Virus record (IMG/VR): IMGVR_UViG_2690316105_000002
Location: 1-13,791 of that record
Strand: one strand, 5' to 3'
Length of the DNA: 13,791 nucleotides
Origin: a virus
Lineage: Duplodnaviria; Heunggongvirae; Uroviricota; Caudoviricetes
In this document: positions 1-13,791 of the stretch, piece by piece
Layout: each line of letters opens with the position of its first letter
Position numbering within the stretch: position 1 is the first letter of the stretch
Position numbers and translations under genes: made by a program
Notes under the pieces: generated by a model
The model's database searches: none
What the model was told of the DNA's origin: nothing
Seen by the model: the letters and a program-made list of their open reading frames with translations, nothing else

Positions 1-53
1 GGGAAAAATATCATCAGATGGCTGCTTAAAAAAAGAACAAATGGTAGTGTCCG

Positions 54-1643
54 CTATTGCCAGTACACCTCAGTTCGCTCCTCCGGTTCGCTGTTCTGGT
101 GCTGTTTATCTTCAGTCTGTCGCACTTTATTTTCCGTTTTTTTGACTTCATTTGAGGAGATATGATGACCGGGAATCCATTTCGAATCATTCGGGTCGCT
201 AATCCCTTCAACAAATTCTCCGCGAGAGGCAGCCAGTAATTTGTCTGCATCGACAGGATTTTTGGGCGGAATGTTTTTCCGGGCTTCATGGAGTTCTGTC
301 CGCAGTTTCTGATATTTCGCATCAACAGCATTTACCTGTGACTGAGCATCCAGCGGCTGCGTGTCCTGATGATGTTCAGTTGCATCCGGTTCCACTGTTT
401 CAGCCGTTGCCTGTTCATCTGCCATTGCGCAAGATGGTTGCGGTTTTTCTTCATCATCCTGTTTTCCTTCTTCTGTTACACGCTGCGGCATCGGGGCAGA
501 GGAGCGACCGCAGGCAATATCCACGATTTCCGGATCAGGGTTGGCATGATCGGTTTCAGTCAGTACCTTGTTCAGATATTCAGTGACGTGCGCGGGGATG
601 ACCTCGATCCCAATTGGTGCTTCTTTTACGGACGCAACCACGATGGCGCGGGAATAATCCAGCCCGCCAGGCATGGTGATGAATTTGTCGCGGAAAACAG
701 AAAAGGGCGGTTTATTTTCAGCGATAATTTCCTCAATGCGTTTAGCGTGTGCCGGATGAAGGTTATAGATGTCCAGATCCATTGAACGGGCCAGTACGCC
801 AGTGGCTACGTCGCGCGCCAGTGACGTCAGATCGTGTACGAAACCTTCGCCGCGATCGGTGAGGTTTCCGCCGCCAGCATTAGCACCGGAAGCCGTGCGA
901 GTGATGTGTGAAACACGATTACCCTTCATCCACTCTTTTGTCAGCAGTCCTCGATCGGTGTAGTCAGCGTTCAGGTATGCTTCGAAAAAAGCAGTTATCA
1001 GTCCCAGGCTTGAATTACCAGGATTAGGGAAAACTTTGTCAGTGTCACGAACCAGTTTGTGGAGATCGCGAATTTCCAGCGGGTCGAGCAGGCTGGTTTT
1101 GTGGGAAACAGCCAGGGCAGTAACAGCCGGTAGTTCTTCAGCCCGAGCAATGTGTAATGCCTGGAGTCCGTCGCGTGAAACGTGCGTTACCGGTTTTTCG
1201 CTGCCGTGTTGAGCAAGCCAGCGAATGGGCAGTTCCTGACCGGAAACTGGCAGGAGCATGTTCTCCTCAATTTCTGTCATGTCTTCGCCGTTGACGTTGG
1301 TATTGTCAGTGCTGGCTGGTTTGTCCTGAACAGAGGGAGAAGATGCGATAAATACCATTGTGATGCCATCTTCCCCGCCTTTTTCGTAACGGTTGCAGAA
1401 TTCCGTATCAAACACGCCTTCTGGTGGGAGGTCATCAACAACGGGCAAATTGACGCGAACAGGTTTTTTAAAGTCATCTTCATCGTAGCCAGCATCGTCA
1501 ATCGCAACAGCACCACGGGAGATGGCAATGGATAATTTTTTCGCTTCAGCCCAGTAAAAACCGCCTTTAATACCGAGGCGTTTTCTTACTTTGTCATTTT
1601 TTGCTTCGTAATACAGTGGGTAAACTTGTTTATCGGTGCTCAT
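54..1643 (-). CDS. hypothetical phage early-left-operon protein, 529 aa, with acidic low-complexity C-terminal tail; family not assignable by eye
   Basis: Longest ORF in the window; last of four tightly spaced minus-strand genes (23-nt gap to the upstream ORF); protein-like composition. No recognisable catalytic motif found. Confidence 0.6.
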
Positions 1644-1666
1644 TGTTTTTTAACCTCAACTCATAT

Positions 1667-1963
1667 TCAGATTGCATAAAAGAAACGAACTGATGATGCG
1701 ATATGAGAGAGTTCTTTCAGTCGTTGATAACTGATACCGTATTTCTTGTCAGCCTCTTCAATGCGAGCTGTGAGTAATGCAATTCCTTTAATGGCACATA
1801 CACAACAATCAAATGTTCCCAGAACGTAACCGTCATCAATAATTACCGTGACGTTTTCTTTTTGGGAAATCTGAATGAAACTATGTAATGTATTCCCACA
1901 TTTAAATTCGGCGAGAGAATCGTTAATAACATCAAGTTCAATTTCACATTCAATAATGCTCAT
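1667..1963 (-). CDS. hypothetical small protein, 98 aa, AT-rich gene
   Basis: ORF track 1667..2011; the internal ATG at 1963 is preceded by an AAGGAA Shine-Dalgarno on the minus strand, whereas the 2011 start has none. AT-rich relative to flanks. Confidence 0.5.
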   Translation of the reverse strand: MSIIECEIELDVINDSLAEFKCGNTLHSFIQISQKENVTVIIDDGYVLGTFDCCVCAIKGIALLTARIEEADKKYGISYQRLKELSHIASSVRFFYAI

Positions 1964-2037
1964 TGCTGTTTCCTTTTTTAAGGTTGAGTGAATCCCTGCC
2001 ATTGCTGGCATAAATTCAGATTCGAATATTCAGTTAA

Positions 2038-2319
2038 TTAAAGTTCGTGTGCCATCTTGTCTTTTTCGGCACAAGCTGCACTGCAATATTTTCGTTTCTT
2101 TCTGGCAATCATGTTTCCATGCATATAAATAAGCTCGCCAGTAAAAGCTTTTTCAGGTAAAAACTGTTTATTGCAGAGATGGTAATCACATTGTATTAAA
2201 TCCGGGTCACCTTTTTGCTGGAGAATTTTTCTGATTCTCCACAGCCATTTTTTAATCCCGGTATGACTGATGGTCTGCCTGAGGGCAGGTGTAAAACAAT
2301 AATCAAGCATGGGGTTCAT
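2038..2319 (-). CDS. hypothetical small Cys/His-containing protein, about 93 aa (alternative start 2325)
   Basis: ORF track 2038..2325; GGAG lies 8 nt upstream of the ATG at 2319 but only 2 nt from the ATG at 2325. Paired Cys spacings (C-x4-C and C-x3-C) suggest a possible zinc ribbon. AT-rich. Confidence 0.5.
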   Translation of the reverse strand: MNPMLDYCFTPALRQTISHTGIKKWLWRIRKILQQKGDPDLIQCDYHLCNKQFLPEKAFTGELIYMHGNMIARKKRKYCSAACAEKDKMAHEL

Positions 2320-2335
2320 ATCCATAGCTCCATTT

Positions 2336-2890
2336 TTATTTTAAGGAAAGCAACTGCTCTACGGTCATGTTTTTAATTGCGCCCCGGTTAACAAGAGTCC
2401 ATCCCTGTTTTTCCAGATAAAACCGGAAAGTCTCCAGGGTACAGACCAGTGCGCCATCAGGAACGGTTTCGGTGAATTCGACATTGCCGAATTTGTCGAA
2501 GTGAACAACCAGAGTGCGACCATCACCCGGAATCATCTTGTCAGCAGGTGGGGTGTTATTCTGGCGCAGTTCGGCCTCCATGCGGTCGAACTCAGCAATG
2601 TAGGCTTCCTTGAATGCGGCGGCTTTTTTGCCAGTGAAGCCCATCACCAGGAAAACGAAGCCGTTTTTGGTGATTTGGTACATGGGGAGTTTGCGTCCGG
2701 TTGAGTCGGTATATTCGCTCGACACAAAATTGTGCCCAGTGAATTTTGCTGAACAGTCCAGATTGCGAATTTTATCCAGCACTCGTTCATGGCGCTTGCC
2801 AAAGAACTCTGCGATTGCAACAGACGTAGTGACAGCGCGACCATTTTCGATGGTTACGTCAGGGTGAGAAAGGGCAGGGATAGTAGCCAT
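2336..2890 (-). CDS. rha: Rha-family phage regulatory protein
   Basis: N-terminal segment VTTSVAIAEFFGKRHERVLDKIRNL matches the conserved Rha-domain core as recalled; AAGGAGG Shine-Dalgarno 8 nt upstream of the ATG at 2890. Confidence 0.75.
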   Translation of the reverse strand: MATIPALSHPDVTIENGRAVTTSVAIAEFFGKRHERVLDKIRNLDCSAKFTGHNFVSSEYTDSTGRKLPMYQITKNGFVFLVMGFTGKKAAAFKEAYIAEFDRMEAELRQNNTPPADKMIPGDGRTLVVHFDKFGNVEFTETVPDGALVCTLETFRFYLEKQGWTLVNRGAIKNMTVEQLLSLK

Positions 2891-3155
2891 TTTAGTGGCC
2901 TCCTTAACTGTTTTAGTCTGCGATTACCAGTTAGTAGCTGGTGATCGGGTGTCAACTAGAGCCAGTTAAGAAGCTCCGGGCATATTCCCCTTACGGGTAT
3001 TGTATTACGCCTCTCCACCCGATCTTTGTACGGATGTGCCGTATTTCAGGCATAAAAAAGCCGCAAGGCTATCGGGTGCGGATGACCGCTTAACTGTTTC
3101 TAGTGCGATCATCTTGCAACAATGCAGGTTGCTTTGTCAATATCCCGGATATCAG

Positions 3156-3190
3156 AAAGCAAAAACCCCTGAACTGGTGGGGACAGGGGC
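3156..3190 (-). terminator. rho-independent terminator downstream of the toxin gene
   Basis: Minus-strand hairpin CAGGGG / CCCCTG (plus 3166..3171 and 3184..3189) followed by a T-tract (plus-strand A5 at 3161..3165), just 3' of the ORF ending at 3210. Confidence 0.6.
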
Positions 3191-3209
3191 GCTACTAAAT
3201 GTGTAATTG

Positions 3210-3530
3210 CTAAACTCTGATCAATCGTCTGAACAGTAACTGTTTAATATCCTGACGTTGGGAAAGAATCACGTGTGCAGTGATAATATCCTCCTCGACA
3301 GAGTACAGCACTCTGTAGCCTTCTGGTGTGTTGCACTCTCTGTATTTAGCCACGCCAAGCTTGAGCAACTCCGGGCATAACTGACATCCGGACGGGAATG
3401 CAGTAACTCTTGTTTCAAATCGCTCAAGAATTTCTGCTATTACAGGGCGTGGGTCAATGTCGTTACTCCGGAGATGGTCGGCAATTTGCTCAAGGCTTGT
3501 TCTGGCGGTAAGTGTGTATTCAACCTGCAT
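3210..3530 (-). CDS. parE: type II toxin, RelE/ParE superfamily (ParE-like), 106 aa
   Basis: Size and C-terminal pattern (GYRVLYSVEEDIITAHVILSQRQD) typical of ParE/RelE-fold toxins; starts 8 nt after the stop of a Phd/YefM-like ORF. Confidence 0.7.
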   Translation of the reverse strand: MQVEYTLTARTSLEQIADHLRSNDIDPRPVIAEILERFETRVTAFPSGCQLCPELLKLGVAKYRECNTPEGYRVLYSVEEDIITAHVILSQRQDIKQLLFRRLIRV

Positions 3531-3538
3531 AGTTAACC

Positions 3539-3772
3539 TTAGTTGTTAAAGCTATCCAGCAACTGTGCTTTTGAAAACACGCGACCTTCAGACTTGTCGT
3601 TTTCTGAAATAGTGAGAAGTTTCAGTAACGCAATAGCGTTCTCGCGTTCCTGTTGCTGCTCATAGGATTCAATTACGTATGCAGGAACACCATTCTGCGT
3701 GACAAGAATGGGTTCCGCCAGGTCCAGTGAGGCTGCGTTTTTCTTGATGTAGCTGATAGTTTCTATTTTCAT
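3539..3772 (-). CDS. phd: type II antitoxin, Phd/YefM family, 77 aa
   Basis: Small ORF directly upstream of the toxin; N-terminal region (ILVTQNGVPAYVIESYEQQQEREN) resembles Phd/YefM antitoxins; AAGGAA Shine-Dalgarno upstream of the ATG. Confidence 0.65.
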   Translation of the reverse strand: MKIETISYIKKNAASLDLAEPILVTQNGVPAYVIESYEQQQERENAIALLKLLTISENDKSEGRVFSKAQLLDSFNN

Positions 3773-3832
3773 ATGGGTGTTCCTTTTTTCATTGGGAGTT
3801 ATAATTTAGTCTGAATTTAGTTTTCTCGCAAG
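3773..3832 (-). promoter_or_regulatory. candidate promoter/operator of the phd-parE operon
   Basis: Minus strand reads TTGCGA-N17-TAAATT upstream of the phd ribosome-binding site, with tandem ACTAAATT direct repeats that could be the autoregulatory operator. Confidence 0.3.
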
Positions 3833-4173
3833 TGGCGGAAGCCGCCAGTTTGGTTTGTTCAAAAAGTCACATCCCGACCCTGCGTTCCGGTTCTGCGGAT
3901 ATATCAGGGCATTCGGCGGCACCCCGAATTGTGGTTTACGTGACAGCCCGGTTCATATTGTTAAAGAGCGGCGGATTTCAGGTGTGGAAATCCCCTGCAC
4001 GAATAACGGTTAATTCGCGCATAATTAATTAAATAAATTTTGTTGATGCGGTGCCTGGTGCCTCCAGGTGACGTTAACCAGTTAACAATTAACGCCGGAA
4101 TAAGGGATTTTCCTTACTGTTTTAACTGTTCCGCGTGCGCTCAGCCGCATTCACCGCATCACAAAATTCACTT

Positions 4174-4235
4174 TAAAAAGGGCGGCAGAGCAAAACTGAT
4201 GCCGCCAAAAGTTTCATCGCCAACAACTCAATCTG
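4174..4235 (-). ncRNA. dicF: candidate DicF-like small RNA (3' end defined by an intrinsic terminator)
   Basis: Minus strand ends ...UUUUGGCGGCAUCAGUUUUGCUCUGCCGCCCUUUUU: a GGCGGCA/TGCCGCC stem plus U-tract resembling the DicF 3' end as recalled. Sits downstream of the ydfABC-like ORFs, as DicF does in Qin. A 10-bp inverted repeat (4248..4257 with 4277..4286) lies just 5'. Confidence 0.4.
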
Positions 4236-4536
4236 GAGATGTTGTGGCGGGTTGTCACTTAATCGTATGGTCAACCTGACAACCCGGTGGACATTTGCGA
4301 GGAACGGAGAAACCCCGCCATACTTACCGCCGCGCCATTTCGCGGATTGCCACAACCGGAAGCGCACGGTCGGCGAAAATTTAACGACAGGCTATCTATG
4401 ACCAGCTACCTCGCCGTGCGCTTTCGTGTTGTGTGCCTGCTTTTAACCACGTCAGGCGAGGTGGTTCCTGTTATTCCCCAACAACAAGAAATTTGTATAA
4501 TCTGAATACCCCAACAATAAGAAGAGTGAGCAAGTG

Positions 4537-5004
4537 ATGTTTGATCTATCATTAGCGATGTCAGCTCTCAAAGAGACTGCATCAATGTTAAAATTATTCA
4601 ATGAAGCAAAAACTCAGGCTGAGGTTGATCGCGCTGTGTCTGAAATAAACTCTAAGTTGTCAAGCATTCAGCTTGAATATTTGTCTCTCATTGATGAGCT
4701 GACAATCTCTAAAAGCAATGAGGCTGCGCTCAAAGCAAAACTCACGGAGATAGAAAAGTTTAAGTTCCAAAGTGAAGACTGCGAACCTCGCCAATTGATT
4801 ACTGGAACGATTGTGTATGCCAGACAGTGCAATACTAGCTCTGGCAAGATTACCATGTATTTTTGTCCAGAATGTTTTGCGAAGAGAGCAATATCTATAT
4901 TGCAACCTTTCCCTATCGAGGAAGGCGATAAATATACGAAAACTCAATGTCCCTCCTGTAAAAATGAGTATCTCATGGACTACAATTTCAATAATGATTT
5001 TTGA
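4537..5004 (+). CDS. hypothetical coiled-coil protein with C-terminal four-Cys zinc-ribbon motif (CPEC...CPSC), 155 aa
   Basis: Clean ORF with GAG-containing ribosome-binding site and its own -10 (TATAAT at 4496..4501); strongly AT-rich versus flanks; opposite orientation to the surrounding left operon. Confidence 0.6.
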   Translation: MFDLSLAMSALKETASMLKLFNEAKTQAEVDRAVSEINSKLSSIQLEYLSLIDELTISKSNEAALKAKLTEIEKFKFQSEDCEPRQLITGTIVYARQCNTSSGKITMYFCPECFAKRAISILQPFPIEEGDKYTKTQCPSCKNEYLMDYNFNNDF

Positions 5005-5122
5005 GTCAAGGTATTCAGATTTTTAAAGAACATGCCGGATACTCACCCGTGTCCGGCGCACGCACTCCACCTCACCCGTGGAGAACTCCTTAATTACCAA
5101 CCTTGGCTTCGTTGGTTAGCCA

Positions 5123-5341
5123 TTAACGCTGGTATGTAATCATTCTGGCAATGCTTAATGCCGCTGCTTTTTCCAGCCTGGTGATATCCTGCTCCTGAGC
5201 GGACAGATTTTCGGCCTCCTTAGCCCGGGCTTCATTGGCCCACTTCAGGTCCTGCGCAGCCTGAATTTTCTGGTGCATCCACTCATAAAGTTCATCATCG
5301 GTATAGTCTGGCGCGATGATGACGGGGTCACGTTTCTGCAT
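5123..5341 (-). CDS. ydfC: small early-left-operon protein, 72 aa (YdfC-like by size and order)
   Basis: ORF track; GAGGA ribosome-binding site; third in a 51/42/72-aa series matching Qin ydfA-ydfB-ydfC lengths as recalled. Confidence 0.5.
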   Translation of the reverse strand: MQKRDPVIIAPDYTDDELYEWMHQKIQAAQDLKWANEARAKEAENLSAQEQDITRLEKAAALSIARMITYQR

Positions 5342-5370
5342 ACCGATTCCTCGCGGTGCTGTTTCGCTTA

Positions 5371-5499
5371 TCAGCCGTTAGATTTTGCCGAACTGGAAAG
5401 CGCCTGTTTAAACTCACTGAAGCTGAGAGCTTCTTCGCCTTCGGCAAGGCCTTCGAAGTATTCTTCGTAAGCCTTTTTCATGATTGTGTCGAAATCCAT
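5371..5499 (-). CDS. ydfB: small early protein, 42 aa (YdfB-like by size and order)
   Basis: Hand-translated (below the track cutoff): MDFDTIMKKAYEEYFEGLAEGEEALSFSEFKQALSSSAKSNG. GGTGAG Shine-Dalgarno; its ATG is 1 nt from the upstream gene's TAA (TAATATG). Confidence 0.45.
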   Translation of the reverse strand: MDFDTIMKKAYEEYFEGLAEGEEALSFSEFKQALSSSAKSNG

Positions 5500-5500
5500 A

Positions 5501-5656
5501 TTACTCACCTGAGTTTCTTTCCAGCCAGCGACGCGCGCCAGATTCGGTTTTAAACGTTTTGCTTTTGGTATACGTCATCGCGGTGAACGTGCCGTCCTGG
5601 TTGGGAAACACGCCACACACCAGGGATTCGTTGTTGCCAAGATCGATAGTATCCAT
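5501..5656 (-). CDS. ydfA: small early protein, 51 aa (YdfA-like by size and order)
   Basis: Hand-translated: MDTIDLGNNESLVCGVFPNQDGTFTAMTYTKSKTFKTESGARRWLERNSGE. Ribosome-binding site GGAAATGAGG; first gene after the PL-like promoter. Confidence 0.45.
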   Translation of the reverse strand: MDTIDLGNNESLVCGVFPNQDGTFTAMTYTKSKTFKTESGARRWLERNSGE

Positions 5657-5729
5657 GCTGACCTCATTTCCCCTTAACGCCGGGTGGCGGAACTAAAACC
5701 TGTCGCACCGTTGTGCTTTGATGGAATAC

Positions 5730-5758
5730 ATTGTTCTCTTTAAATGAACATATGTCAA
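5730..5758 (-). promoter_or_regulatory. early-left (PL-like) promoter with embedded 17-bp operator
   Basis: Minus strand TTGACA (5753..5758), 17-nt spacer, AACAAT (5730..5735). Operator GTTCTCTTTAAATGAAC (5733..5749) is a near copy of the operator at the PR-like promoter. Confidence 0.55.
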
Positions 5759-5778
5759 CATTATGAATTCATAAAAGG

Positions 5779-5810
5779 CAAAAAAAACCGCCTTTCGGCG
5801 GTATTGTTTT
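5779..5810 (-). terminator. rho-independent terminator after the repressor gene
   Basis: CCGCC-TTTC-GGCGG hairpin (5788..5801) flanked by an A-tract on one side and a T-tract on the other; minus strand reads hairpin then TTTTTTTT. Confidence 0.7.
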
Positions 5811-5823
5811 GTAAAATAAAGAA

Positions 5824-6213
5824 TTATTTTTGACGCGTTGCTGGGTCAACGTATTCTGAATAAAATTCAGTCAGTTTTTGAAGTCGCATTTGAAAAGCTG
5901 CAAGCATATTTCTGCGTTCTACAGGTGGCAGATTTCTGTAAACATCAAGCAGGGCTTTCTCATCATCATCAAGTGTCTCTCTATTGCTATCTTCTTTTCC
6001 TGTCAGCAACCAGGAAAGGGATACGTTTGTAGCTTCTGCAATTTTTGCCGCGGAATCTTTACTGATTGTTCCTCTTTTTTTCCATGCGTTAACTGACGAG
6101 CGACCTACACCAGCGATACGCGCTAAATCTGAACCGCTTAAGTGATGCTGTTGCGAGATCGTATCTAACCTTTCTGCCAGCGGGGTGTCGTATTGCTTTT
6201 TTCTCATGTCCAT
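5824..6213 (-). CDS. prophage repressor, HTH (XRE-type), DicA/CI-like, 129 aa, no peptidase domain
   Basis: Helix-turn-helix segment (SGSDLARIAGVGRSSVNAWKKRG); divergent from a Cro-like gene; followed by a terminator and the left-operon promoter. Too short for a LexA-like autocleavage domain. Confidence 0.8.
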   Translation of the reverse strand: MDMRKKQYDTPLAERLDTISQQHHLSGSDLARIAGVGRSSVNAWKKRGTISKDSAAKIAEATNVSLSWLLTGKEDSNRETLDDDEKALLDVYRNLPPVERRNMLAAFQMRLQKLTEFYSEYVDPATRQK

Positions 6214-6295
6214 TTGGCAATTATAACCGTTCAGTGAACACTAACAATTTCTCAGGGTGTTGACTTACGTTCTTTTTAAGTGAACAATTGTTGTG
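6214..6295. promoter_or_regulatory. divergent PRM-like / PR-like promoters with operators
   Basis: PR-like (plus): TTGACT 6260..6265, 17 nt, AACAAT 6283..6288, with operator GTTCTTTTTAAGTGAAC at 6269..6285. PRM-like (minus): TTGTTA, 16 nt, TATAAT (plus 6220..6225) ending 7 nt before the repressor ATG. Extra palindrome GTTCAGTGAAC at 6229..6239. Confidence 0.6.
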
Positions 6296-6317
6296 TTTGA
6301 TTGAAGTGGAGGATTGT

Positions 6318-6593
6318 ATGACTGCTTTGGATAAAGCAATAAAGATTGCTGGTGGTATTCGCCCGTTAGGGCGCGCAATAGGGGCCTGGCCGTCCCAAAT
6401 ACACAAATGGGTAAATGAATACCATGGTCGAGTGCCGACAGGAGAACGAGTTCGCCAAATTTACCTTGCAACTGGGGTTACTCCTCATGAGTTGCGGCCA
6501 GATTTGTACCCCAACCCAACCGACGGTTTACCTGTTGGATGTAAGGCTAGCACACAAAATTCACGGGGGATGATTCATGAAAATCAGGCATGA
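6318..6593 (+). CDS. Cro-like HTH regulator (YdaS-like), 91 aa
   Basis: GGAGGA Shine-Dalgarno 4 nt before the ATG at 6318 (the track's TTG start at 6288 is less likely); first gene of the right operon. Confidence 0.7.
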   Translation: MTALDKAIKIAGGIRPLGRAIGAWPSQIHKWVNEYHGRVPTGERVRQIYLATGVTPHELRPDLYPNPTDGLPVGCKASTQNSRGMIHENQA

Positions 6594-6999
6594 GCACATC
6601 GAATCAGTGTTGTTAGCCCTGGCAGCCGAAAAAGGGCAGGCGTGGGTTGCCAACGCACTGACTGAAGAATATCTGCGCCAGGGGGGAGGTGAATTGTCTC
6701 TGACACCAGGCAAGGACTGGAATAATCAGCAGAACATCTATCATCGTTGGTTAAAAGGTGAAACGAAAGCGCAAAGGGAAAAAATTCAGAAACTGATCCC
6801 TGCGGTTCTGGCAATTCTTCCGCGTGAGCTGCGTCACCGACTCTGTATCTTCGATACCCTGGAACGCCGTGCATTACTGGCGGCGCAGGAAGCGTTGAGT
6901 ACGGCAATTGATGCGCATGATGACGCAGTTCAGGCCGTTTACCGGAAAGCACATTTCAGCGGTGGTGGGTCGTCCGACGATTCTGTCGTTGTGCATTGA
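6577..6999 (+). CDS. CII-like / YdaT-like protein, 140 aa
   Basis: Overlaps the Cro-like gene by 17 nt; GGGGGA ribosome-binding site; size and position match YdaT-family proteins as recalled. Confidence 0.6.
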   Translation: MKIRHEHIESVLLALAAEKGQAWVANALTEEYLRQGGGELSLTPGKDWNNQQNIYHRWLKGETKAQREKIQKLIPAVLAILPRELRHRLCIFDTLERRALLAAQEALSTAIDAHDDAVQAVYRKAHFSGGGSSDDSVVVH

Positions 7000-7089
7000 T
7001 GTTTATGCCGAACCTCCTCTGGTTCTGTTGATTGGGGAATCACAGATTATATCCGGAGGAAGGTTCGGCACCAGACGAGGTTTCTATAT

Positions 7090-7845
7090 ATGAGCATGAA
7101 ACTAATGGCAAAAGCAATGGAAATTAAAGTGGGTAATCCATTGCGTAAGCTGGTTCTGATTAAGCTGGCTGATAATGCCAGCGATCAGGGCGAGTGCTGG
7201 CCCAGCTACCAGTATATCGCTGACCAGTGCGAGATTAGCAAGCGTTCTGTGATTAATCATATTGCGGCGCTTTGTGAGTCCGGGCTGGTAAAAAAAATCA
7301 CCCGGAAAGGTGAAAAAGGTAATACAAGTAATATCTATCTCCTTCATCTGGATGGTGCAGAAAATTTACCGGGGAATAGTGCAAATAATTCGCTACATTG
7401 TGCATCAGATGCATCGGGTAGCGCAGGAGTTGCACCTGTTGCCAGTGCAGGAGTTGCACCCAGAACCAGTCACTCTTTTGAACCAGTCAATGAACCTGAT
7501 GTTGGTGGATCTGCTGACGCAGATCCACAGGTCAGTCATCGCGCAAAAAACAAAATCGACTGGCAGAGGGTTCTGGACAGCTATCACGAAATCCTGCCTG
7601 AAATGCCATCAGTGAAAATTCTGACGGATACTAGGAAAAAAAATCTGCGGACGTTCTGGCAGAAATTCGGTTTTGACCAGCAGCGATGGGAGTCCTATCT
7701 GCGATACGTTGCTGAGAACTGTCGCTGGATGCTGGAAGATCGTCCCAATGGCAGCGGTGGGTTCTGGAAGCGTAAAAACCTGGATTACCTGATCACCGAA
7801 CGGTGCTATGTCGCTGTCAAAGAGGCGCGGGCAAATGACAGATAA
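7090..7845 (+). CDS. phage replication initiation protein (N-terminal winged-helix DNA-binding domain), 251 aa
   Basis: N-terminal motif GECWPSYQYIADQCEISKRSVINHIAALCESGLV typical of phage replication-initiator HTH domains; Gly/Ser/Ala/Pro-rich linker containing direct DNA repeats; immediately followed by the helicase gene. Confidence 0.7.
   Translation: MSMKLMAKAMEIKVGNPLRKLVLIKLADNASDQGECWPSYQYIADQCEISKRSVINHIAALCESGLVKKITRKGEKGNTSNIYLLHLDGAENLPGNSANNSLHCASDASGSAGVAPVASAGVAPRTSHSFEPVNEPDVGGSADADPQVSHRAKNKIDWQRVLDSYHEILPEMPSVKILTDTRKKNLRTFWQKFGFDQQRWESYLRYVAENCRWMLEDRPNGSGGFWKRKNLDYLITERCYVAVKEARANDR
7423..7489. repeat. iteron-like direct repeats inside the initiator gene (candidate origin)
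   Basis: GCAGGAGTTGCACC at 7423..7436 and 7447..7460; GAACCAGTCA at 7463..7472 and 7480..7489; A-rich tract downstream around 7543..7556. Confidence 0.45.
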
Positions 7846-9238
7846 CACCTTTCCGGTGCCATACCGGGTCGATGCCGAACAGGCAGTGCTGGGGTGCCTG
7901 ATGGTAAACACCGACACTGAGCGTGCGGGGCAGGTGTATTCGATGCTGAAACCGGAGTCGTTTTACGTTGCGGCGCACAGGGTTATTTTCCGTGAAATTC
8001 GCGGACTTTTCCGCGCCGGAAAGCCTACGGACCTGCTCAGCCTTGCGAACGTGATCGAGGCGAAAAAACTGGATGCTGAGACTGGTGGCTTTGCGTACCT
8101 TGCTGAAATCAGCAGGAGTGCCACGCTATCGGCGATGGTTCACTACGCCGGGATTGTGCGGGAAAAATCCATCCTGCGGTACGCGGTGGAAAAATTACAT
8201 GCGTGCATCGGGATCATGAATCAGCCGACAGACACGAGTGCGACAGAACGACTTGGCGCAGTTCAACAGGTCATTGGCACGATGGCAGAGTATGCCAGAA
8301 CAGGAAAAACAGGCGGTCTGCGCCCGGTAAGTGATGTGGTTAACGACTGGATTGATGATCTTGAGCGTCGCTTTTCCAGCCCGGAGAACGCAGCGGGTCT
8401 GACGCTGGGGATTAGCTCTCTGGATCGGCTTATGGCCCCCAAACATGTGCTACGTGGTTCGCTGGTAGTGATTGGTGCAAGGCCGAAAATGGGTAAAAGC
8501 GCCTCGCTGAACAGGATTGTGACGCATTTTGCTCTGAATCATCGTCTGCCCACACTGGTATTCACCCTGGAAATGACAGATCGCAGCCTGGTTGAGCGCA
8601 TGGTTGCGCAGGAGGCGAGGGTAAATTCTGAAATTTTTTATGTCGGTGCCAGTGATGACTCGGATATGGCGCGGGCGATGGCGAAAGCCGCAGAACTGGC
8701 AGAATCAAACCTGATGATTGACAGCACACCAGGGGTAACGCTGGCCCATGTGATCGCTGAATGCCGGAAGGTTAAGCGTCAGCGTGGTGTTGTCGGCCTT
8801 GTGGCGATCGATTACCTGACGCTGATGAAGGCGGAAGCCGCGGAGCGTCGTGATATTGCTTTCGGGGATATCACAACGGGCTTAAAAAATCTCGCTAAAG
8901 AGCTGGACTGCGTGGTTTTACTTCTGACGCAACTTAACCGAAAACTCGAGGACAGGGCAGATAAACGCCCCACACCAAGCGACAGTCGCGACACCGGGCA
9001 GATTGAACAGGATTGCGATGTGTGGATTGGGTTGTACCGGGATGCTGTCTACAACCGTAACGCAGACTCTCAGCTTATGGAGCTGATTCTCCGTCTGAAC
9101 AGGGAGGGAGCAACAGGAACAGCATACGCCCTGATGGATAACGGTTCAGTGACTGATGTCAGCGCAGAGGATGCTGCCAGACGTCTGAGACTTGGTGGTC
9201 CGGCACGTAAACCCTACGCACAGACGGAGGATTTCTGA
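7835..9238 (+). CDS. dnaB: replicative DNA helicase, DnaB family
   Basis: DnaB-like N-terminal domain and Walker A-like motif GARPKMGKS; the ATG at 7835 overlaps the initiator stop (ATGACAGATAA); the track's upstream start at 7808 is less likely. Confidence 0.85.
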   Translation: MTDNTFPVPYRVDAEQAVLGCLMVNTDTERAGQVYSMLKPESFYVAAHRVIFREIRGLFRAGKPTDLLSLANVIEAKKLDAETGGFAYLAEISRSATLSAMVHYAGIVREKSILRYAVEKLHACIGIMNQPTDTSATERLGAVQQVIGTMAEYARTGKTGGLRPVSDVVNDWIDDLERRFSSPENAAGLTLGISSLDRLMAPKHVLRGSLVVIGARPKMGKSASLNRIVTHFALNHRLPTLVFTLEMTDRSLVERMVAQEARVNSEIFYVGASDDSDMARAMAKAAELAESNLMIDSTPGVTLAHVIAECRKVKRQRGVVGLVAIDYLTLMKAEAAERRDIAFGDITTGLKNLAKELDCVVLLLTQLNRKLEDRADKRPTPSDSRDTGQIEQDCDVWIGLYRDAVYNRNADSQLMELILRLNREGATGTAYALMDNGSVTDVSAEDAARRLRLGGPARKPYAQTEDF

Positions 9239-9399
9239 TGCAGTCACTTTGTGATGTTCTGGAAAAAACGCTGCTTCAGTTCGGGCGGGGGGAAACGGCG
9301 GAGCAGAAAACACGAAACCAGAAGAATCTGGTTCATCTGAGAAAAATGATTGATGCAGCCAGGCTGGCTGAAAAGCTGGAAAAACAAAACCGGAGGTAA
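9238..9399 (+). CDS. hypothetical small protein, 53 aa
   Basis: Hand-translated ([23 protein letters not shown]...); its ATG shares one base with the helicase TGA (TGATG); the next gene's GGAGG lies in its 3' end. Confidence 0.4.
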
Positions 9400-9404
9400 T
9401 TTTA

Positions 9405-10166
9405 ATGGAAACTGTTTTTGACGCACTGAAAGCAATGGGAAAAGCCACATCCACAGAACTTGCTGCGCGACTTGATATCAGTCGTGAAGAAGTGCTGAAC
9501 GAACTATGGGAACTGAAAAAGGCTGGTTTTGTTGATAAAAGCGCGTACACCTGGCGTGTGGCTGATAACAACGTTCAGCAGGAACAGCCAGCGCAGGCAG
9601 AACTGCCGGAAGAAACCACCACAGCAACAGTAGCGAAAATCTCAGAGTGCGATTTAACCGCGACGATTGAACAACGCGGACCACAAACGGCTGATGAGCT
9701 GGCTACATTGTTTGGTACCACATCACGCAAAGTGGCTTCAACGCTGGCAATGGCAATCAGCAAAGGTCGTCTGATTCGCGTAAATCAGGGCGGTAAATTT
9801 CGTTACTGCATACCGGGCGATAATTTACCAGCAGAGCCGAAAGCAGCATCGGTAGCGGAAACTGATGGTAAGGCCTTTCCTCAGCCCGCAGGTGTTGCAT
9901 TACCAGTACAGGAGGCTGCAACACAGGAAGATATTAAAACAGAAACGGTGGCGGACATTGTGCAGTCGCTGCCATTGTTCACCGAAACGCGAGCGGATGA
10001 CCTGGTTTTACCATCGCTGCATATGGCAAACCGCGAACTGCGTCGGGCGAAAAGTCATGTCCAGAAGTGGGAGCGTGTCTGCGCCGCGCTGCGGGAGCTG
10101 AATAAACACCGGGACGTTGTCCGGCAGATTGTCGACTCTTCCCGCCGTGTTGCATCGGAAAAGTGA
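9405..10166 (+). CDS. hypothetical phage protein with two winged-helix-like segments, 253 aa
   Basis: ORF track; GGAGG 8 nt upstream; two HTH-like stretches (residues about 10-50 and 90-130). Confidence 0.6.
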
Positions 10167-10181
10167 TTGCCGGAGGCGCTT

Positions 10182-10607
10182 ATGGCAAAAGTATTTACAC
10201 AGGAAGAGCGGGAAAAATTAAAGGGGCGGGTTGTTGAACTTGTACGTCTTAGCGGTCGCGAGACGTTACGGCAACTGGAAGCGAAAACAGGTGCGACAAG
10301 ATATCTGTTGAGCGTTCTCGCCAGAGAGCTGGTTGCCAGTGGTGATGTATACAACTCTGACTACGGGTTATTTCCCTCTGAACAGGCTCGTAAGGACTGG
10401 CAAAACGCCCGCAAAAAACTATCAAGGGCAAAACTGAAGAAAAAAACATCTGTGGTTGATCCGGACCTTATCTGGTCGTTACCAGACGGCGAAATACGTC
10501 GCTACGACAGTCGCCTAAACATAATCTGTCGCGAGTGCCGGAAGAGCGAAGTTATGCAGCGCATATTGTCGTTTTATCAGGGTAATTTTCAGGAGGTGAT
10601 GGCGTGA
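10182..10607 (+). CDS. hypothetical phage protein, about 141 aa
   Basis: ORF track 10167..10607; the ATG at 10182 is preceded by GGAGG and is preferred over the TTG at 10167. Confidence 0.55.
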   Translation: MAKVFTQEEREKLKGRVVELVRLSGRETLRQLEAKTGATRYLLSVLARELVASGDVYNSDYGLFPSEQARKDWQNARKKLSRAKLKKKTSVVDPDLIWSLPDGEIRRYDSRLNIICRECRKSEVMQRILSFYQGNFQEVMA

Positions 10608-10909
10608 GGGTGAGAGTCTATATCGCCGGTCCAATGACCGGGTATAAAAATTTCAACCGTGAGGCGTTTCACAATGCGGAAGAGGAACTGAAACGGGAAG
10701 GGCATACCGTCTTAAACCCGGCAGTACTTCCGGACGGGCTGACACAGCCGCAGTACATGGATATCTGCATGGCGATGATTCGTTGTGTGGATGCGATTTA
10801 CATGCTGAAAGGCTGGCAGCGGTCAGCAGGCGCTAAGGCAGAACTGGCGCTGGCGGAGAAACTGGGGCATGCGGTGATTTTTCAGGAGACAGCCAGTGTG
10901 CAAGACTAA
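10604..10909 (+). CDS. DUF4406-like protein (nucleoside 2-deoxyribosyltransferase-like fold), 101 aa
   Basis: N-terminal YIAGPMTGYKNFNREAF matches the YxAGP motif of this family as recalled; GTG start overlapping the upstream stop (GTGA); AGGAGG 7 nt upstream. Confidence 0.5.
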   Translation: MRVRVYIAGPMTGYKNFNREAFHNAEEELKREGHTVLNPAVLPDGLTQPQYMDICMAMIRCVDAIYMLKGWQRSAGAKAELALAEKLGHAVIFQETASVQD

Positions 10910-11351
10910 TTACCAGGCATTACGTGAACGTTATTCACCAATTCAGGTGCCGGAATGTCCTGTTTGTGGCGATGAAATGTCGATACAGCGCATATTTTCC
11001 AGAACGCATATTGTGTATGCCTGCACAGGTGAGGGGGATGATGGATATTTTAAAACTGGTCGAACTTTTGCGGATGAGCATTACCTGAAATCGCGCGTAA
11101 CCGTCGTTGATGTTAGCGATCCTGACGTACTGGCTTTACTGAAAGAGCTGGAAGTTAAAGACAAACGCATTGCAGAATTGACAGATGCGCTTACACAAAT
11201 GATTAATGCGCACAAAACCACAATTCGTTTTGGTCATGAACGCATAACTGAATGTGGTGGTGATTGCGACTCGCCGGAAAAGATGATTTCAGAAAATCCG
11301 GATATCAGAATGGCAGAGGCTGTTTTGAGAGCAGGGATAAAAACTGAATAA
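10896..11351 (+). CDS. hypothetical phage protein with Cys pairs (CPVC, CGGDC), 151 aa
   Basis: ORF track; GTG start overlapping the upstream gene by 14 nt; GGAG 8 nt upstream. Confidence 0.5.
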   Translation: MCKTNYQALRERYSPIQVPECPVCGDEMSIQRIFSRTHIVYACTGEGDDGYFKTGRTFADEHYLKSRVTVVDVSDPDVLALLKELEVKDKRIAELTDALTQMINAHKTTIRFGHERITECGGDCDSPEKMISENPDIRMAEAVLRAGIKTE

Positions 11352-11446
11352 TTAAATTTAGCACAGCAAATAAAATTTAATCCTTAACCGGAGGGATTTC
11401 TGCACCCTCAGAACATCAGGAGGCCGCCTGAAAGGGCGGTAGTGAA

Positions 11447-11629
11447 ATGCGAAAGTTCAAAATAATTATTGAAACGGGAATAGCTGGTGGAGATTTTGAG
11501 GATGTATTCGAAGTGGACGATGACGCAACACCTGATGAAATTCATGATGAAGCAAAAGAAATTTTCTTTAACTACTGCAATTATTCATATCACGAAATAA
11601 AAGACGAAGAGGAAGAACAAAATGGCTGA
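11447..11629 (+). CDS. hypothetical small acidic protein, 60 aa
   Basis: ORF track; AGGAGG at 11418..11423 is separated from the ATG by a 16-nt hairpin plus 7 nt. Confidence 0.5.
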   Translation: MRKFKIIIETGIAGGDFEDVFEVDDDATPDEIHDEAKEIFFNYCNYSYHEIKDEEEEQNG

Positions 11630-11798
11630 TTTTGGTTCAACTAAATACAACGTCAGTTTTAAAGAATGGCATGAACTGTTAATGGCCTATGCAGAGTTAC
11701 GCGGTGGAAGTGCTGCTGATGCCGATGCATGGCGTGATGCTTATGAAGCAGGAAAAACACCGGTCGAAGCATATTGTGATGAGTGGGGCGATGAATGA
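11622..11798 (+). CDS. hypothetical small protein, 58 aa
   Basis: Hand-translated (MADFGSTKYNVSFKEWHELLMAYAELRGG...); GAGGAAG ribosome-binding site; overlaps both neighbours (8 nt upstream, ATGA downstream). Confidence 0.45.
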   Translation: MADFGSTKYNVSFKEWHELLMAYAELRGGSAADADAWRDAYEAGKTPVEAYCDEWGDE

Positions 11799-12310
11799 GC
11801 GAGATTAATTATCAGGAAGGGCATGAAACGGTAGGGCAGGCAAAACCAGTTGCATGGCGATATCGCTATGTGAAAAAAAGCGTTACGGACTTTCAGGAGA
11901 AGATGTGGGTTGGTGACTGGAAATATGTACCGACAAAAGAGGATTGCAACGACAGGCCGAGCTATGAGATTCAGGCCTTATTCACTGCCCCGCCAGTCCC
12001 GGTGACATCAGAAGGACTGGTTAAAGCCGTGCGCTTTTATGAACAGGTAAAGCGTGAAAATCCGCCAGCTGAAACAGGAGCATGGAAAGATGCTGTTGAT
12101 TGGGTACTCAAAGAGGCCTGCTGTGCTGCCATTCTGGGTAAAGCTGACAATCCACTAGCATCCAGTAATCAGGTTAGCGAATTAACAATGTGGGTTAAAC
12201 GACTGGTCAGTCAACTGAAAAAAGCTCAGCCGGACTGCAAATTACCGGAGAAGGCGATGGATTACCTGAAACGAAATGGACTGATAAGCGTGGAGGATGT
12301 TTTACGATGA
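11795..12310 (+). CDS. hypothetical phage protein, 171 aa
   Basis: ORF track; ATGA overlap with the upstream ORF. Confidence 0.6.
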   Translation: MSEINYQEGHETVGQAKPVAWRYRYVKKSVTDFQEKMWVGDWKYVPTKEDCNDRPSYEIQALFTAPPVPVTSEGLVKAVRFYEQVKRENPPAETGAWKDAVDWVLKEACCAAILGKADNPLASSNQVSELTMWVKRLVSQLKKAQPDCKLPEKAMDYLKRNGLISVEDVLR

Positions 12311-12390
12311 CCTGGTCTGAAGCATTCACAACGGTAGGAATCGCACTGGCGGTGGCGCTGGTGGTGTATTCGATTTGCCGCTGGGGATAA
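12307..12390 (+). CDS. possible small hydrophobic peptide, 27 aa (single predicted membrane helix)
   Basis: Hand-translated MTWSEAFTTVGIALAVALVVYSICRWG; ATGA overlap with the upstream stop. Short, so weakly supported. Confidence 0.3.
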   Translation: MTWSEAFTTVGIALAVALVVYSICRWG

Positions 12391-12397
12391 AAACGGT

Positions 12398-12425
12398 TTG
12401 CGGGAAAAGGAGAGTTAAGTAGAAT
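12398..12425 (+). promoter_or_regulatory. candidate promoter of the hok mRNA
   Basis: TTGCGG (12398..12403), 16-nt spacer, TAGAAT (12420..12425); predicts a roughly 420-nt transcript ending at the terminator at 12850. Confidence 0.4.
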
Positions 12426-12601
12426 TGCAGCGGGTGCTTGAGGCTATCTGTCTCAGGCATGAACACCAAAAGGCAGATAGAGAAAAGCCCCAGTTAACAT
12501 TACGCGTCCGGCAAGACGCTTAACATTAAGCTGAGGCTCAATCCATGCTGAACACATGTAGGTTAGCCTCTTACGTGCCGAAAGGCAAGGAGAAGCAGGC
12601 T

Positions 12602-12757
12602 ATGAAGCAGCAAAAGGCGATGTTAATCGCCCTGATCGTCATCTGTTTAACCGTCATAGCGACGGCACTGGTAACGAGGAAAGACCTCTGTGAGGTACGA
12701 ATCCGAACCGGCCAGACGGAGGTCGCTGTCTTCGTAGACTACGAATCTAGAGAGTAA
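12602..12757 (+). CDS. hok: Hok/Gef-family type I toxin, 51 aa
   Basis: MKQQKAMLIALIVICLTVIATALVTRKDLCEVRIRTGQTEVAVFVDYESRE: membrane helix followed by the conserved LVTRKDLCEV-RIRTGQTEVAVF core of Hok/Gef toxins as recalled; long structured leader and 3' UTR; in-frame upstream ATG at 12545. Confidence 0.85.
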   Translation: MKQQKAMLIALIVICLTVIATALVTRKDLCEVRIRTGQTEVAVFVDYESRE

Positions 12758-12828
12758 GAGTGACCAGGCGAGGGAGAAATCCCTCGCCACCTCTGATGTG
12801 TCAGGCATCCTCAACGCACCCGCACTTA

Positions 12829-12850
12829 ACCCGCTTCGGCGGGTTTTTTG
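12829..12850 (+). terminator. rho-independent terminator of the hok transcript
   Basis: CCCGC-TTCG-GCGGG hairpin with UUCG tetraloop followed by TTTTTT (12844..12849). Confidence 0.75.
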
Positions 12851-12979
12851 TTGCGATTTTCAACGCGTTTGAACTTTCAGAATGCGCAGGAATAGAATCA
12901 AAAACACTTAAGTAGCGCGCAGGGAGAAGAGGGATGGACCCCTTAAGGGGAAGTGTTAAAAGTTCACAGGCTTTTTGTT

Positions 12980-13147
12980 ATGAACGTTAAAGAATTGATT
13001 GTTGTGCTTTCTTTACCAGGTCACTACGAAGTGATAACGCTCGAAAATGGGGAGTTTATCGTAACGCCATTACCTCCTGATGCAATTCTAATCAGCAAAG
13101 AATCGCACGCAGATTCTGTAAGCCACTTCTGTATTAAAGAAGACTAA
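12980..13147 (+). CDS. hypothetical small protein, about 55 aa (alternative GTG start 12953)
   Basis: ORF track 12953..13147; the ATG at 12980 is overlapped by an 18-codon upstream ORF (12934..12990) that has a strong AGGGAGAAGAGGG ribosome-binding site. Confidence 0.45.
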   Translation: MNVKELIVVLSLPGHYEVITLENGEFIVTPLPPDAILISKESHADSVSHFCIKED

Positions 13148-13207
13148 ATTATACTGGCAACGCCAGTCTGAACACCTGGTACCTGTCGCACCATTACGAG
13201 GGTAGTA

Positions 13208-13791
13208 GTGGTGCATTTACAGTTAGTCAAACAAACTTCTTCTGGTTTACTTCTCCCGGCGACGCCGGAGAGTTGCGATTTTCTGCATCAAATCAAAACA
13301 GGTGAGTGGATACACGCTGATTTTAAGCGCGTTCGTAACTACGCATTCCACAAGCGTTTTTTCAAACTCCTGCAACTGGGGTTCGATTACTGGACTCCGG
13401 TCGGAGGGGCGATCACGCCTAGCGAACAAAAACTGGTTTCAGGCTTCGTTGAGTACCTGCGCGAATCAGTAGGTCGGGAACATACGCCAGCTCTGAGCGA
13501 AGCCGCAGAGCAATATCTGAATACCGTTGCGACACGCAGAACCCGGGATACAGCATTGCTAAAGTCGTTTGAGGCTTTCCGCGAGTGGGTAACCATTCAG
13601 GCCGGATTTTACACCGAGCATATTTATCCTGATGGTAGTCGTGGGCGCAGGGCAAAATCTATCGCATTTGCGAACATGGACGAAACCGAGTTTCAGCAGG
13701 TTTATAAATCTGTACTGAATGTGCTGTGGAACTGGATCCTGTTCCGTAAATTTTCCTCTCCGGAACAAGTCGAAAATGTGGCCGCGCAGCT
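13208..13791 (+). CDS. phage protein, 5' partial at window end (at least 194 aa), possibly DUF1367-like
   Basis: Hand-translated: open frame from GTG 13208 (GAGG 5 nt upstream) with no stop to the window end; absent from the track because it is incomplete. Family assignment is a weak recollection. Confidence 0.6.
   Translation, partial: MVHLQLVKQTSSGLLLPATPESCDFLHQIKTGEWIHADFKRVRNYAFHKRFFKLLQLGFDYWTPVGGAITPSEQKLVSGFVEYLRESVGREHTPALSEAAEQYLNTVATRRTRDTALLKSFEAFREWVTIQAGFYTEHIYPDGSRGRRAKSIAFANMDETEFQQVYKSVLNVLWNWILFRKFSSPEQVENVAAQ

Follow-up and report, generated by a model that had tools for sequence, protein, structure and literature searches.

An antiphage protein encoded by prophages, Rip1 (ring interacting pore 1), is harmless by itself according to a review (PMC13434031) of the work of Patel et al. 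(Nature 651:1060, 2026). As the review also relates, cryo-electron microscopy revealed 12 Rip1 monomers encircling an 11-mer ring of the small terminase, with the C-terminal half touching the ring and the N-terminal part being an amphipathic helix. The resulting pore released dye from liposomes and perforated cells, leading to premature lysis. Pseudomonas phages escaped by mutations in the portal, E. coli phages by mutations in the small terminase, and most relatives were found in a prophage context (PMC13434031). These essentials are repeated in PMC12908700 and PMC13601566, and the Rip1 mechanism referred to below is taken at second hand from the review and from the title of PDB entry 9oox, HK446 Rip1 complexed with the T6 small terminase. 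The present analysis concerns an open reading frame (ORF) of 155 amino acids (aa) at positions 4537-5004 (+ strand) of IMG/VR record IMGVR_UViG_2690316105_000002, positions 1 to 13,791, a stretch of 13,791 nucleotides (nt) that was analysed whole and is referred to as the window. The ORF probably encodes a divergent member of the Rip1 family, with its function being argued by analogy to the characterised protein.

The first-pass annotation, made from the sequence alone, had proposed that the gene was superinfection-exclusion or defence cargo, had found no known family for it, and had suggested profile searches and structure prediction. These returned a single significant match, which was Rip1. 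A profile built on alignment A2 (50 family sequences) matched chain L of 9oox among the PDB sequences at E = 6.8e-27 (97 bits; profile positions 10-149 against chain residues 22-159), and BLASTP of the window protein against HK446 Rip1 gave 25% identity over 140 aa (E = 3e-10). With Foldseek, the best match was chain M of the same entry (E = 1.4e-6, probability 1.00, template modelling (TM) score 0.74), while the runner-up had an E-value of 0.49; the window protein therefore has the same fold as the solved Rip1 structure. In PHROGs, the protein was placed in phrog_1244 at E = 2e-35, a family described as ‘unknown function’, which also takes in HK446 Rip1, JBD30 gp30 (E = 3e-61) and HK620 HkaP. 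Family membership is thus established by sequence, profile and fold. The absence of a known family could not be upheld, since the protein belongs to phrog_1244 together with HkaP and matches Rip1, which has been solved and mechanistically characterised since 2026. The guess of defence cargo was in turn supported by the homology and fold, and by HK446 Rip1 having the same antisense topology in the pL operon.

The extent of the family depended on how it was searched. A word-index search with the single protein found one relative only, and a seeded alignment was required to go further. Searching phage genomes by tblastn gave matches in PhiR29 and PhiR49 (47% identity), Klebsiella phages (43%), the HkaP genes of HK620, HK630 and HK629 (25%) and the Mu-like Rhodobacter phage RcWaterboi (28%). 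When seeded with the translated phage matches, the alignment retrieved approximately 50 clusters, all annotated ‘hypothetical’, and an exhaustive profile search reached 3,400 cluster representatives at E ≤ 1e-3, with 1,806 at E ≤ 1e-10. The family alignment contained no stretch of 7-10 conserved columns. No Pfam model scored above its cut-off (the best was Zn_ribbon_4 at 14.7 bits versus 30.3, the zinc-ribbon matches having E = 0.03-0.3), nor did any NCBIfam model (best ECs_2282_CxxC, 13.9 bits versus 37). In PADLOC-DB v2 (2023), which is older than the description of Rip1, no family matched the window protein at E ≤ 1. A literature search that did not include the primary Rip1 paper yielded no report linking Rip1 to HK446, HK620 or the ydfC-dicF slot in which the window gene lies, and no mention of PhiR29 or PhiR49.

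The architecture of the protein was that of a single-gene Rip1 of about 150-170 aa, namely a helical N-terminal half followed by a C-terminal half bearing two CxxC pairs and SILQ. In the AlphaFold2 (AF2) model, which was computed on the family alignment and had a mean predicted local distance difference test score (pLDDT) of 83.4, rising to approximately 90 over residues 51-120, the N-terminal region was helical at residues 4-23 and 27-79 (4546-4773). The C-terminal domain, a β-rich zinc ribbon at residues 83-148 (4783-4980), had strands at 83-86, 92-100, 103-109, 133-137 and 144-148. The first cysteine pair, C110-P-E-C113, is encoded at 4864-4875, the family signature S-I-L-Q-P (residues 120-124) at 4894-4908 and the second pair, C138-P-S-C141, at 4948-4959. 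The four-cysteine ribbon CPEC...CPSC read by the first-pass annotation is therefore real, with all four cysteines invariant both in A2 and in A4, the alignment that takes in HK446 Rip1 and JBD30 gp30. Within A2, L122 and P124 were also invariant, and S120, I121 and Q123 were at least 90% conserved. Once HK446 Rip1, JBD30 gp30 and HK620 HkaP were included, the invariant residues were L65, Y94, C110, C113, L122, Q123, C138 and C141. By analogy, the helical half of the window protein would match the pore-lining half of Rip1 and the zinc-ribbon half its ring-contacting half, these roles being those given in the review (PMC13434031).

The ORF begins with an ATG at 4537 and ends with a stop codon at 5002-5004; an alternative GTG start at 4534 would give 156 aa. 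A stretch of E. coli VL40 was 100% identical, and there the Prokaryotic Genome Annotation Pipeline (PGAP) calls the same 155-aa coding sequence (CDS) as a ‘hypothetical protein’. In comparison with E. coli and Salmonella copies, which differed at 7-15 synonymous and 8-19 non-synonymous positions, the ratio of non-synonymous to synonymous substitution rates (dN/dS) was 0.28-0.31. A ratio of about 0.3 indicates that the ORF is a real coding sequence, and the gene is under purifying selection. The plus-strand ORF of 155 aa and its high AT content, both reported from the sequence alone, were each confirmed, the GC content being 38.2% for the ORF and 37.9% for the module that carries it, compared to 50.0% and 51.1% for the flanks.

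The extent of this module was determined by alignment with the corresponding regions of E. coli K-12 and O157. In the K-12 Qin prophage and in an O157:H7 prophage, an unrelated segment of approximately 29 nt took the place of positions ~4448-5033, with high identity on both sides; the ydfC-dicF spacer of K-12 Qin is 340 nt long and geneless. The cassette-like module of ~586 nt comprises the promoter region, the ORF and a 29-nt tail. The earlier suggestion that the gene was inserted, to be checked in related prophages, accordingly agrees with a sharp-edged module that is absent from K-12 Qin and the O157 prophage. A site class of ~542 nt in O157:H7 was considered as a remnant of the module and rejected, since the alignment showed an empty site like that of K-12. 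The module was also found, at 93-100% identity, in prophages of Salmonella and E. coli WGI31CT, where the right flank was unrelated. The WGI31CT allele was 97% identical to the window gene. Downstream of DUF977, the WGI31CT prophage (L013:10244-12468; likewise L014, from PSJ-22) also encodes an ABC-three-component system that includes a DUF2326 protein, and may thus hold two defence-type cargos in one prophage.

Other E. coli prophages carried homologues with 41-45% aa identity (41-43% by BLASTP) in the same slot and the same orientation. These ‘hypothetical’ genes had been considered as unrelated alternative cargo, an idea that was rejected when BLASTP placed them in the same family. Relative to the window, the CDS of the slot alleles shared only 57-58% nt identity and the flanks 93-95%, and mosaic alleles were found that shared only the 3' 60% of the gene. 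The ydfC-dicF spacer of Rac/Qin-type prophages is therefore a dedicated, recombining slot for Rip1 alleles, previously undescribed. The presence of divergent and mosaic alleles suggests that they differ in specificity. Since the promoter is conserved while the coding sequence diverges rapidly and recombines, the gene has the appearance of an arms-race gene.

Upstream of the ORF, a candidate -10 hexamer, TATAAT, was located at 4496-4501 (+ strand), preceded by a weak -35. By arithmetic, approximately 7 TATAAT hexamers are expected by chance on both strands of the window, so a lone hexamer is not significant. The 89-nt region 4448-4536 that includes it was 91-93% identical between alleles whose CDS share only 57-58%, and 96-100% identical in Salmonella and WGI31CT. 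This conservation suggests that the TATAAT region functions as the promoter of the Rip1-like gene. A purine-rich stretch resembling a Shine-Dalgarno sequence, AAGAAGAGTGAG, was read at 4519-4530 (+ strand), and its end 6 nt upstream of the ATG is consistent with a role in translation initiation.

The ORF is antisense to the left operon, placed between ydfC and a DicF-like element, and this orientation was compared with that of other family members. The family gene was counter-oriented to both neighbours in 16 of the 16 contexts examined. In the pL operon, HK446 Rip1 (gp37) occupies the stretch between N and ral/cIII in antisense orientation, and the HkaP genes of HK620 and HK630 also lie antisense in this operon, in HK620 between N and cIII. 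The PhiR29 homologue is antisense and adjoins cI. For this phage, the deposited CDS PhiR29_2 (L004:4236-4964; 242 aa) starts far upstream of the family-homologous region, and the likely true start would give a protein of ~174 aa. Gene 10 of RcWaterboi shares the strand of the repressor and runs antisense to the early operon in which it lies, and JBD30 gp30 is antisense between a small-terminase-like gene and terL. Seven further diverse members were examined with called genes. Those of Serratia, Yersinia, Hafnia and Sodalis adjoin N; those of Enterobacter (L024:2501-3013) and Y. pseudotuberculosis (L025:2501-2965) lie antisense between antiterminator Q and the holin; and that of Rhodobacter maris lies in a Mu-like early region. 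The Q-holin site is the classic position of Shiga-toxin-type cargo.

Together, at least five insertion positions were represented, namely next to N, the ydfC-dicF spacer, Q-holin, terS-terL and Mu-like early operons, and no conserved partner gene was found beside family members across the contexts looked at. Because all contexts are counter-oriented, the earlier remark on the antisense relation between left-operon transcripts and the window gene is an instance of a family-wide rule. For the window gene itself, the evidence supports an accessory gene that is autonomous and counter-oriented and occupies a slot for lysogen-expressed cargo. A tentative and rather doubtful extension is that the counter-orientation serves as a self-immunity switch. 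In the lysogen, the conserved promoter of the gene would drive its transcription; on induction, strong convergent lytic transcription would silence it, so that the prophage's own terminase and portal rings trigger no suicide. The alleles in the ydfC-dicF slot, diverging fast and recombining, would in addition recognise different phage rings.

Compared to HK446 Rip1 (gp37, YP_007111990; PDB 9oox), the window protein is only 24-25% identical and shorter, with ~11 fewer N-terminal residues in the alignment. The two also differ in the signature, which is SILQY in HK446 and SILQP in the window protein, and in genomic site, the HK446 gene being at N-ral/cIII and the window gene in the ydfC-dicF spacer of a Rac/Qin-type prophage. 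With the JBD30 gp30 type, the window protein shares phrog_1244, the cysteine pairs, the ILQ motif and the counter-orientation; the identity is 21%, and JBD30, a transposable phage, carries its gene in the late (packaging) operon. The review describes a Pseudomonas Rip1 whose gene is flanked by those of the small and large terminases, with escape mutations in the portal (PMC13434031); the phage is possibly not JBD30 itself. The HkaP proteins of HK620, HK630 and HK629 belong to the same family (25-26% identity) and are likewise encoded antisense in the pL operon. HK620 HkaP has long been annotated as ‘putative superinfection exclusion protein’, and the only literature found on HkaP uses its flanking intergenic regions as reporter insertion sites (PMC4506075). 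Further removed are Avs1-3, which sense the large terminase, and TerI, which senses the small terminase (PMC13601566). With these, Rip1-type proteins share the trigger class, that is, conserved phage DNA-packaging proteins (PMC13601566), whereas the architectures are unrelated (STAND NTPases and others) and the window protein had no PADLOC matches.

Based on this likeness, the window gene is most likely a phage-defence gene, and a course of action can be postulated from the characterised protein. The lysogen would express the protein from the gene's own promoter, and by itself the protein would do no harm. Once a superinfecting phage had entered late expression and assembled small terminase or portal into an oligomeric ring, molecules of the protein would bind around this ring by their C-terminal zinc-ribbon domains. 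The inner membrane would then be breached by a pore built of the N-terminal helices (residues ~4-79), and the cell would be killed or lysed before progeny matured, amounting to abortive infection.

Several observations weigh against this reading. The window protein is only 21-25% identical to Rip1s of the characterised type. As HK446 Rip1 and JBD30 gp30 share only 30.5% identity with each other, the 21-24% identity of the window protein is within the family spread. The AF2 model had a predicted TM score (pTM) of only 0.56. The best 18-residue hydrophobic moment was 0.44, compared to a shuffle median of 0.43; the values for HK446 Rip1 (0.42) and JBD30 gp30 (0.45) do not exceed shuffles either, and for this reason the test does not discriminate. 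The consensus promoter scan made no call at 4496, where the -10 is perfect and the -35 poor. Of the first-pass proposal that the gene has its own -10, the hexamer and the conservation upstream therefore stood, and the promoter scan and the -35 did not agree with it. Among the four E. coli copies, one (PSJ-22, L014:6001-6468) had two in-frame stops, at codons 13 and 36, and it follows that the gene is dispensable and can be lost. The PSJ-22 copy is the same allele as the window gene, carries no gene annotation and is a recent pseudogene. Lastly, the expression, trigger, pore formation and defence phenotype of the window allele are proposed by analogy, as are, from the sequence, its expression from the putative promoter and a possible antisense interplay with the left operon; a 12-mer pore around a ring has been established for HK446 Rip1 and the T6 small terminase alone.

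The dispensability of the gene raises the alternative that it is a Rip1-family gene but a silent or non-functional relic in a decaying prophage. In the VL40 prophage, which is the 100% match, the integrase is frameshifted, recE and rha are truncated and insertion sequences are present; the poor -35 and the two stop codons of the PSJ-22 copy would also fit decay. Against this, the ORF in the window is intact and keeps all the invariant family residues, dN/dS is ~0.3 across the E. coli and Salmonella copies, and conservation of the upstream region extends over different alleles and host species, so that a relic is considered unlikely. The orientation of the gene can also be read as its main purpose. 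A left-operon transcript reaching the DicF-like element must cross the module antisense, and the counter-orientation is universal in the family. Convergent transcription could in that case attenuate left-operon read-through into DicF and beyond, with the protein being secondary. This is very improbable, since the protein is under purifying selection and is kept across ~3,400 cluster representatives at many genomic positions, and such protein-level conservation would not be expected if only transcription mattered.

The remaining alternatives place the protein in a different family. A SieB-type superinfection-exclusion protein is the historical guess for HK620 HkaP, suggested by where and in which direction its gene lies within the pL operon. 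HK620 hkaP is so annotated and is antisense between N and cIII, where lambda and P22 carry sieB. The sieB genes of these phages resemble the window gene in genomic position and orientation, and the outcome of their action is of the abortive-infection type. The window protein, however, matched no Pfam, NCBIfam or PADLOC model, any SieB model included, and showed no detectable relation to lambda or P22 SieB in sequence or fold. It also had no predicted transmembrane segment or hydrophobic stretch of the membrane-protein kind, the highest Kyte-Doolittle mean over 19 residues being 0.72. Rip1 was the only significant structural and profile match, leaving a SieB-type protein a slim chance. A zinc-ribbon protein of the DksA/TraR or Ogr type, binding nucleic acid or regulating transcription of prophage or host genes, would account for the sub-threshold zinc-ribbon matches in Pfam (E = 0.03-0.3). 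With a long helix, a C4 zinc ribbon and a length of ~150 aa, the window protein superficially resembles DksA/TraR. Neither the DksA/TraR-like nor the SieB-like idea had sequence or fold support and both were rejected, a regulator being given the slimmest chance of the alternatives. The Rip1 reading thus remains the preferred one.

The surroundings of the gene are those of a temperate phage, as for Rip1. From the ORF list and the VL40 annotation, the window is the early region of a Rac/Qin-type lambdoid prophage, between integrase/recE and a dicA-like repressor. The minus strand carries a recE-like exonuclease (54-1643), the YdaE and Rha genes, a Phd/YefM-RelE/ParE pair (3210-3772), ydfC (5123-5341), which is the right neighbour of the Rip1-like gene in the left operon and was also called by PGAP on the identical VL40 sequence, then ydfB and ydfA, and the DicA-like repressor (5824-6213). 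Cro-like, ydaT-like and replication genes follow on the plus strand from 6288.

Between the convergent Rip1-like and ydfC genes, three hairpins were identified by sequence and folding at 5035-5056, 5065-5083 and 5096-5116. The plus strand of this spacer (5035-5116) folds at -38.3 kcal/mol (z = -3.7), and hairpins 1 and 2 share the loop core CACCCGTG/CTCACCC. According to the alignments, all three are also present in K-12 Qin and O157, and they therefore belong to the left-operon backbone and its transcript, outside the module. They may be processing or termination sites en route to DicF. A scan reported a terminator-like site on the minus strand at 5049-5036. On the plus strand no T-run follows the three hairpins, and the Rip1-like gene is accordingly without a canonical terminator.

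On the left side, the divergent neighbour is a DicF-like RNA at 4180-4216 (- strand), matched by Rfam RF00039 with 27.9 bits (E = 0.0013). Compared to K-12 dicF, it has an 11-nt deletion in the loop and a different 5' (target-pairing) part, while the terminator stem is conserved. The placement of the gene between the ydfC-like gene and a candidate DicF, as first described, is thus correct, and the DicF identity is less certain as the score is below the gathering score of 48 bits. No dicB was found downstream of this element. Directly downstream of it, an STnc100-like match at 4009-4178 (- strand) was sub-threshold (38.9 versus 47 bits). Two other RNA matches were recorded in the window. The Rfam family sRNA-Xcc1 matched 2935-3024 (- strand) with 67.4 bits against a gathering score of 53, between the RelE/ParE toxin and Rha genes. 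A full-length sok antitoxin RNA at 12432-12607 (+ strand; 118.7 bits) overlaps a hok/mok-type ORF at 12545-12757, the two forming a toxin-antitoxin locus of type I within the prophage's late-early region.

The kind of protein was already known, and the added value lies mainly in the annotation transfer, the allelic slot and the orientation rule. A gene of E. coli and Salmonella prophages that had been annotated merely as ‘hypothetical’ now has a mechanistic hypothesis, and phrog_1244 and HK620 HkaP are tied to the pore-forming defence of Rip1. As PADLOC, Pfam and NCBIfam were all blank for this protein, single-gene defences in cryptic prophages are easily missed in phage therapy and host-range prediction. 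The ydfC-dicF slot could be searched for variants that differ in trigger specificity, and the strict counter-orientation provides a testable clue to how a prophage may avoid death by its own ring-sensing defence.
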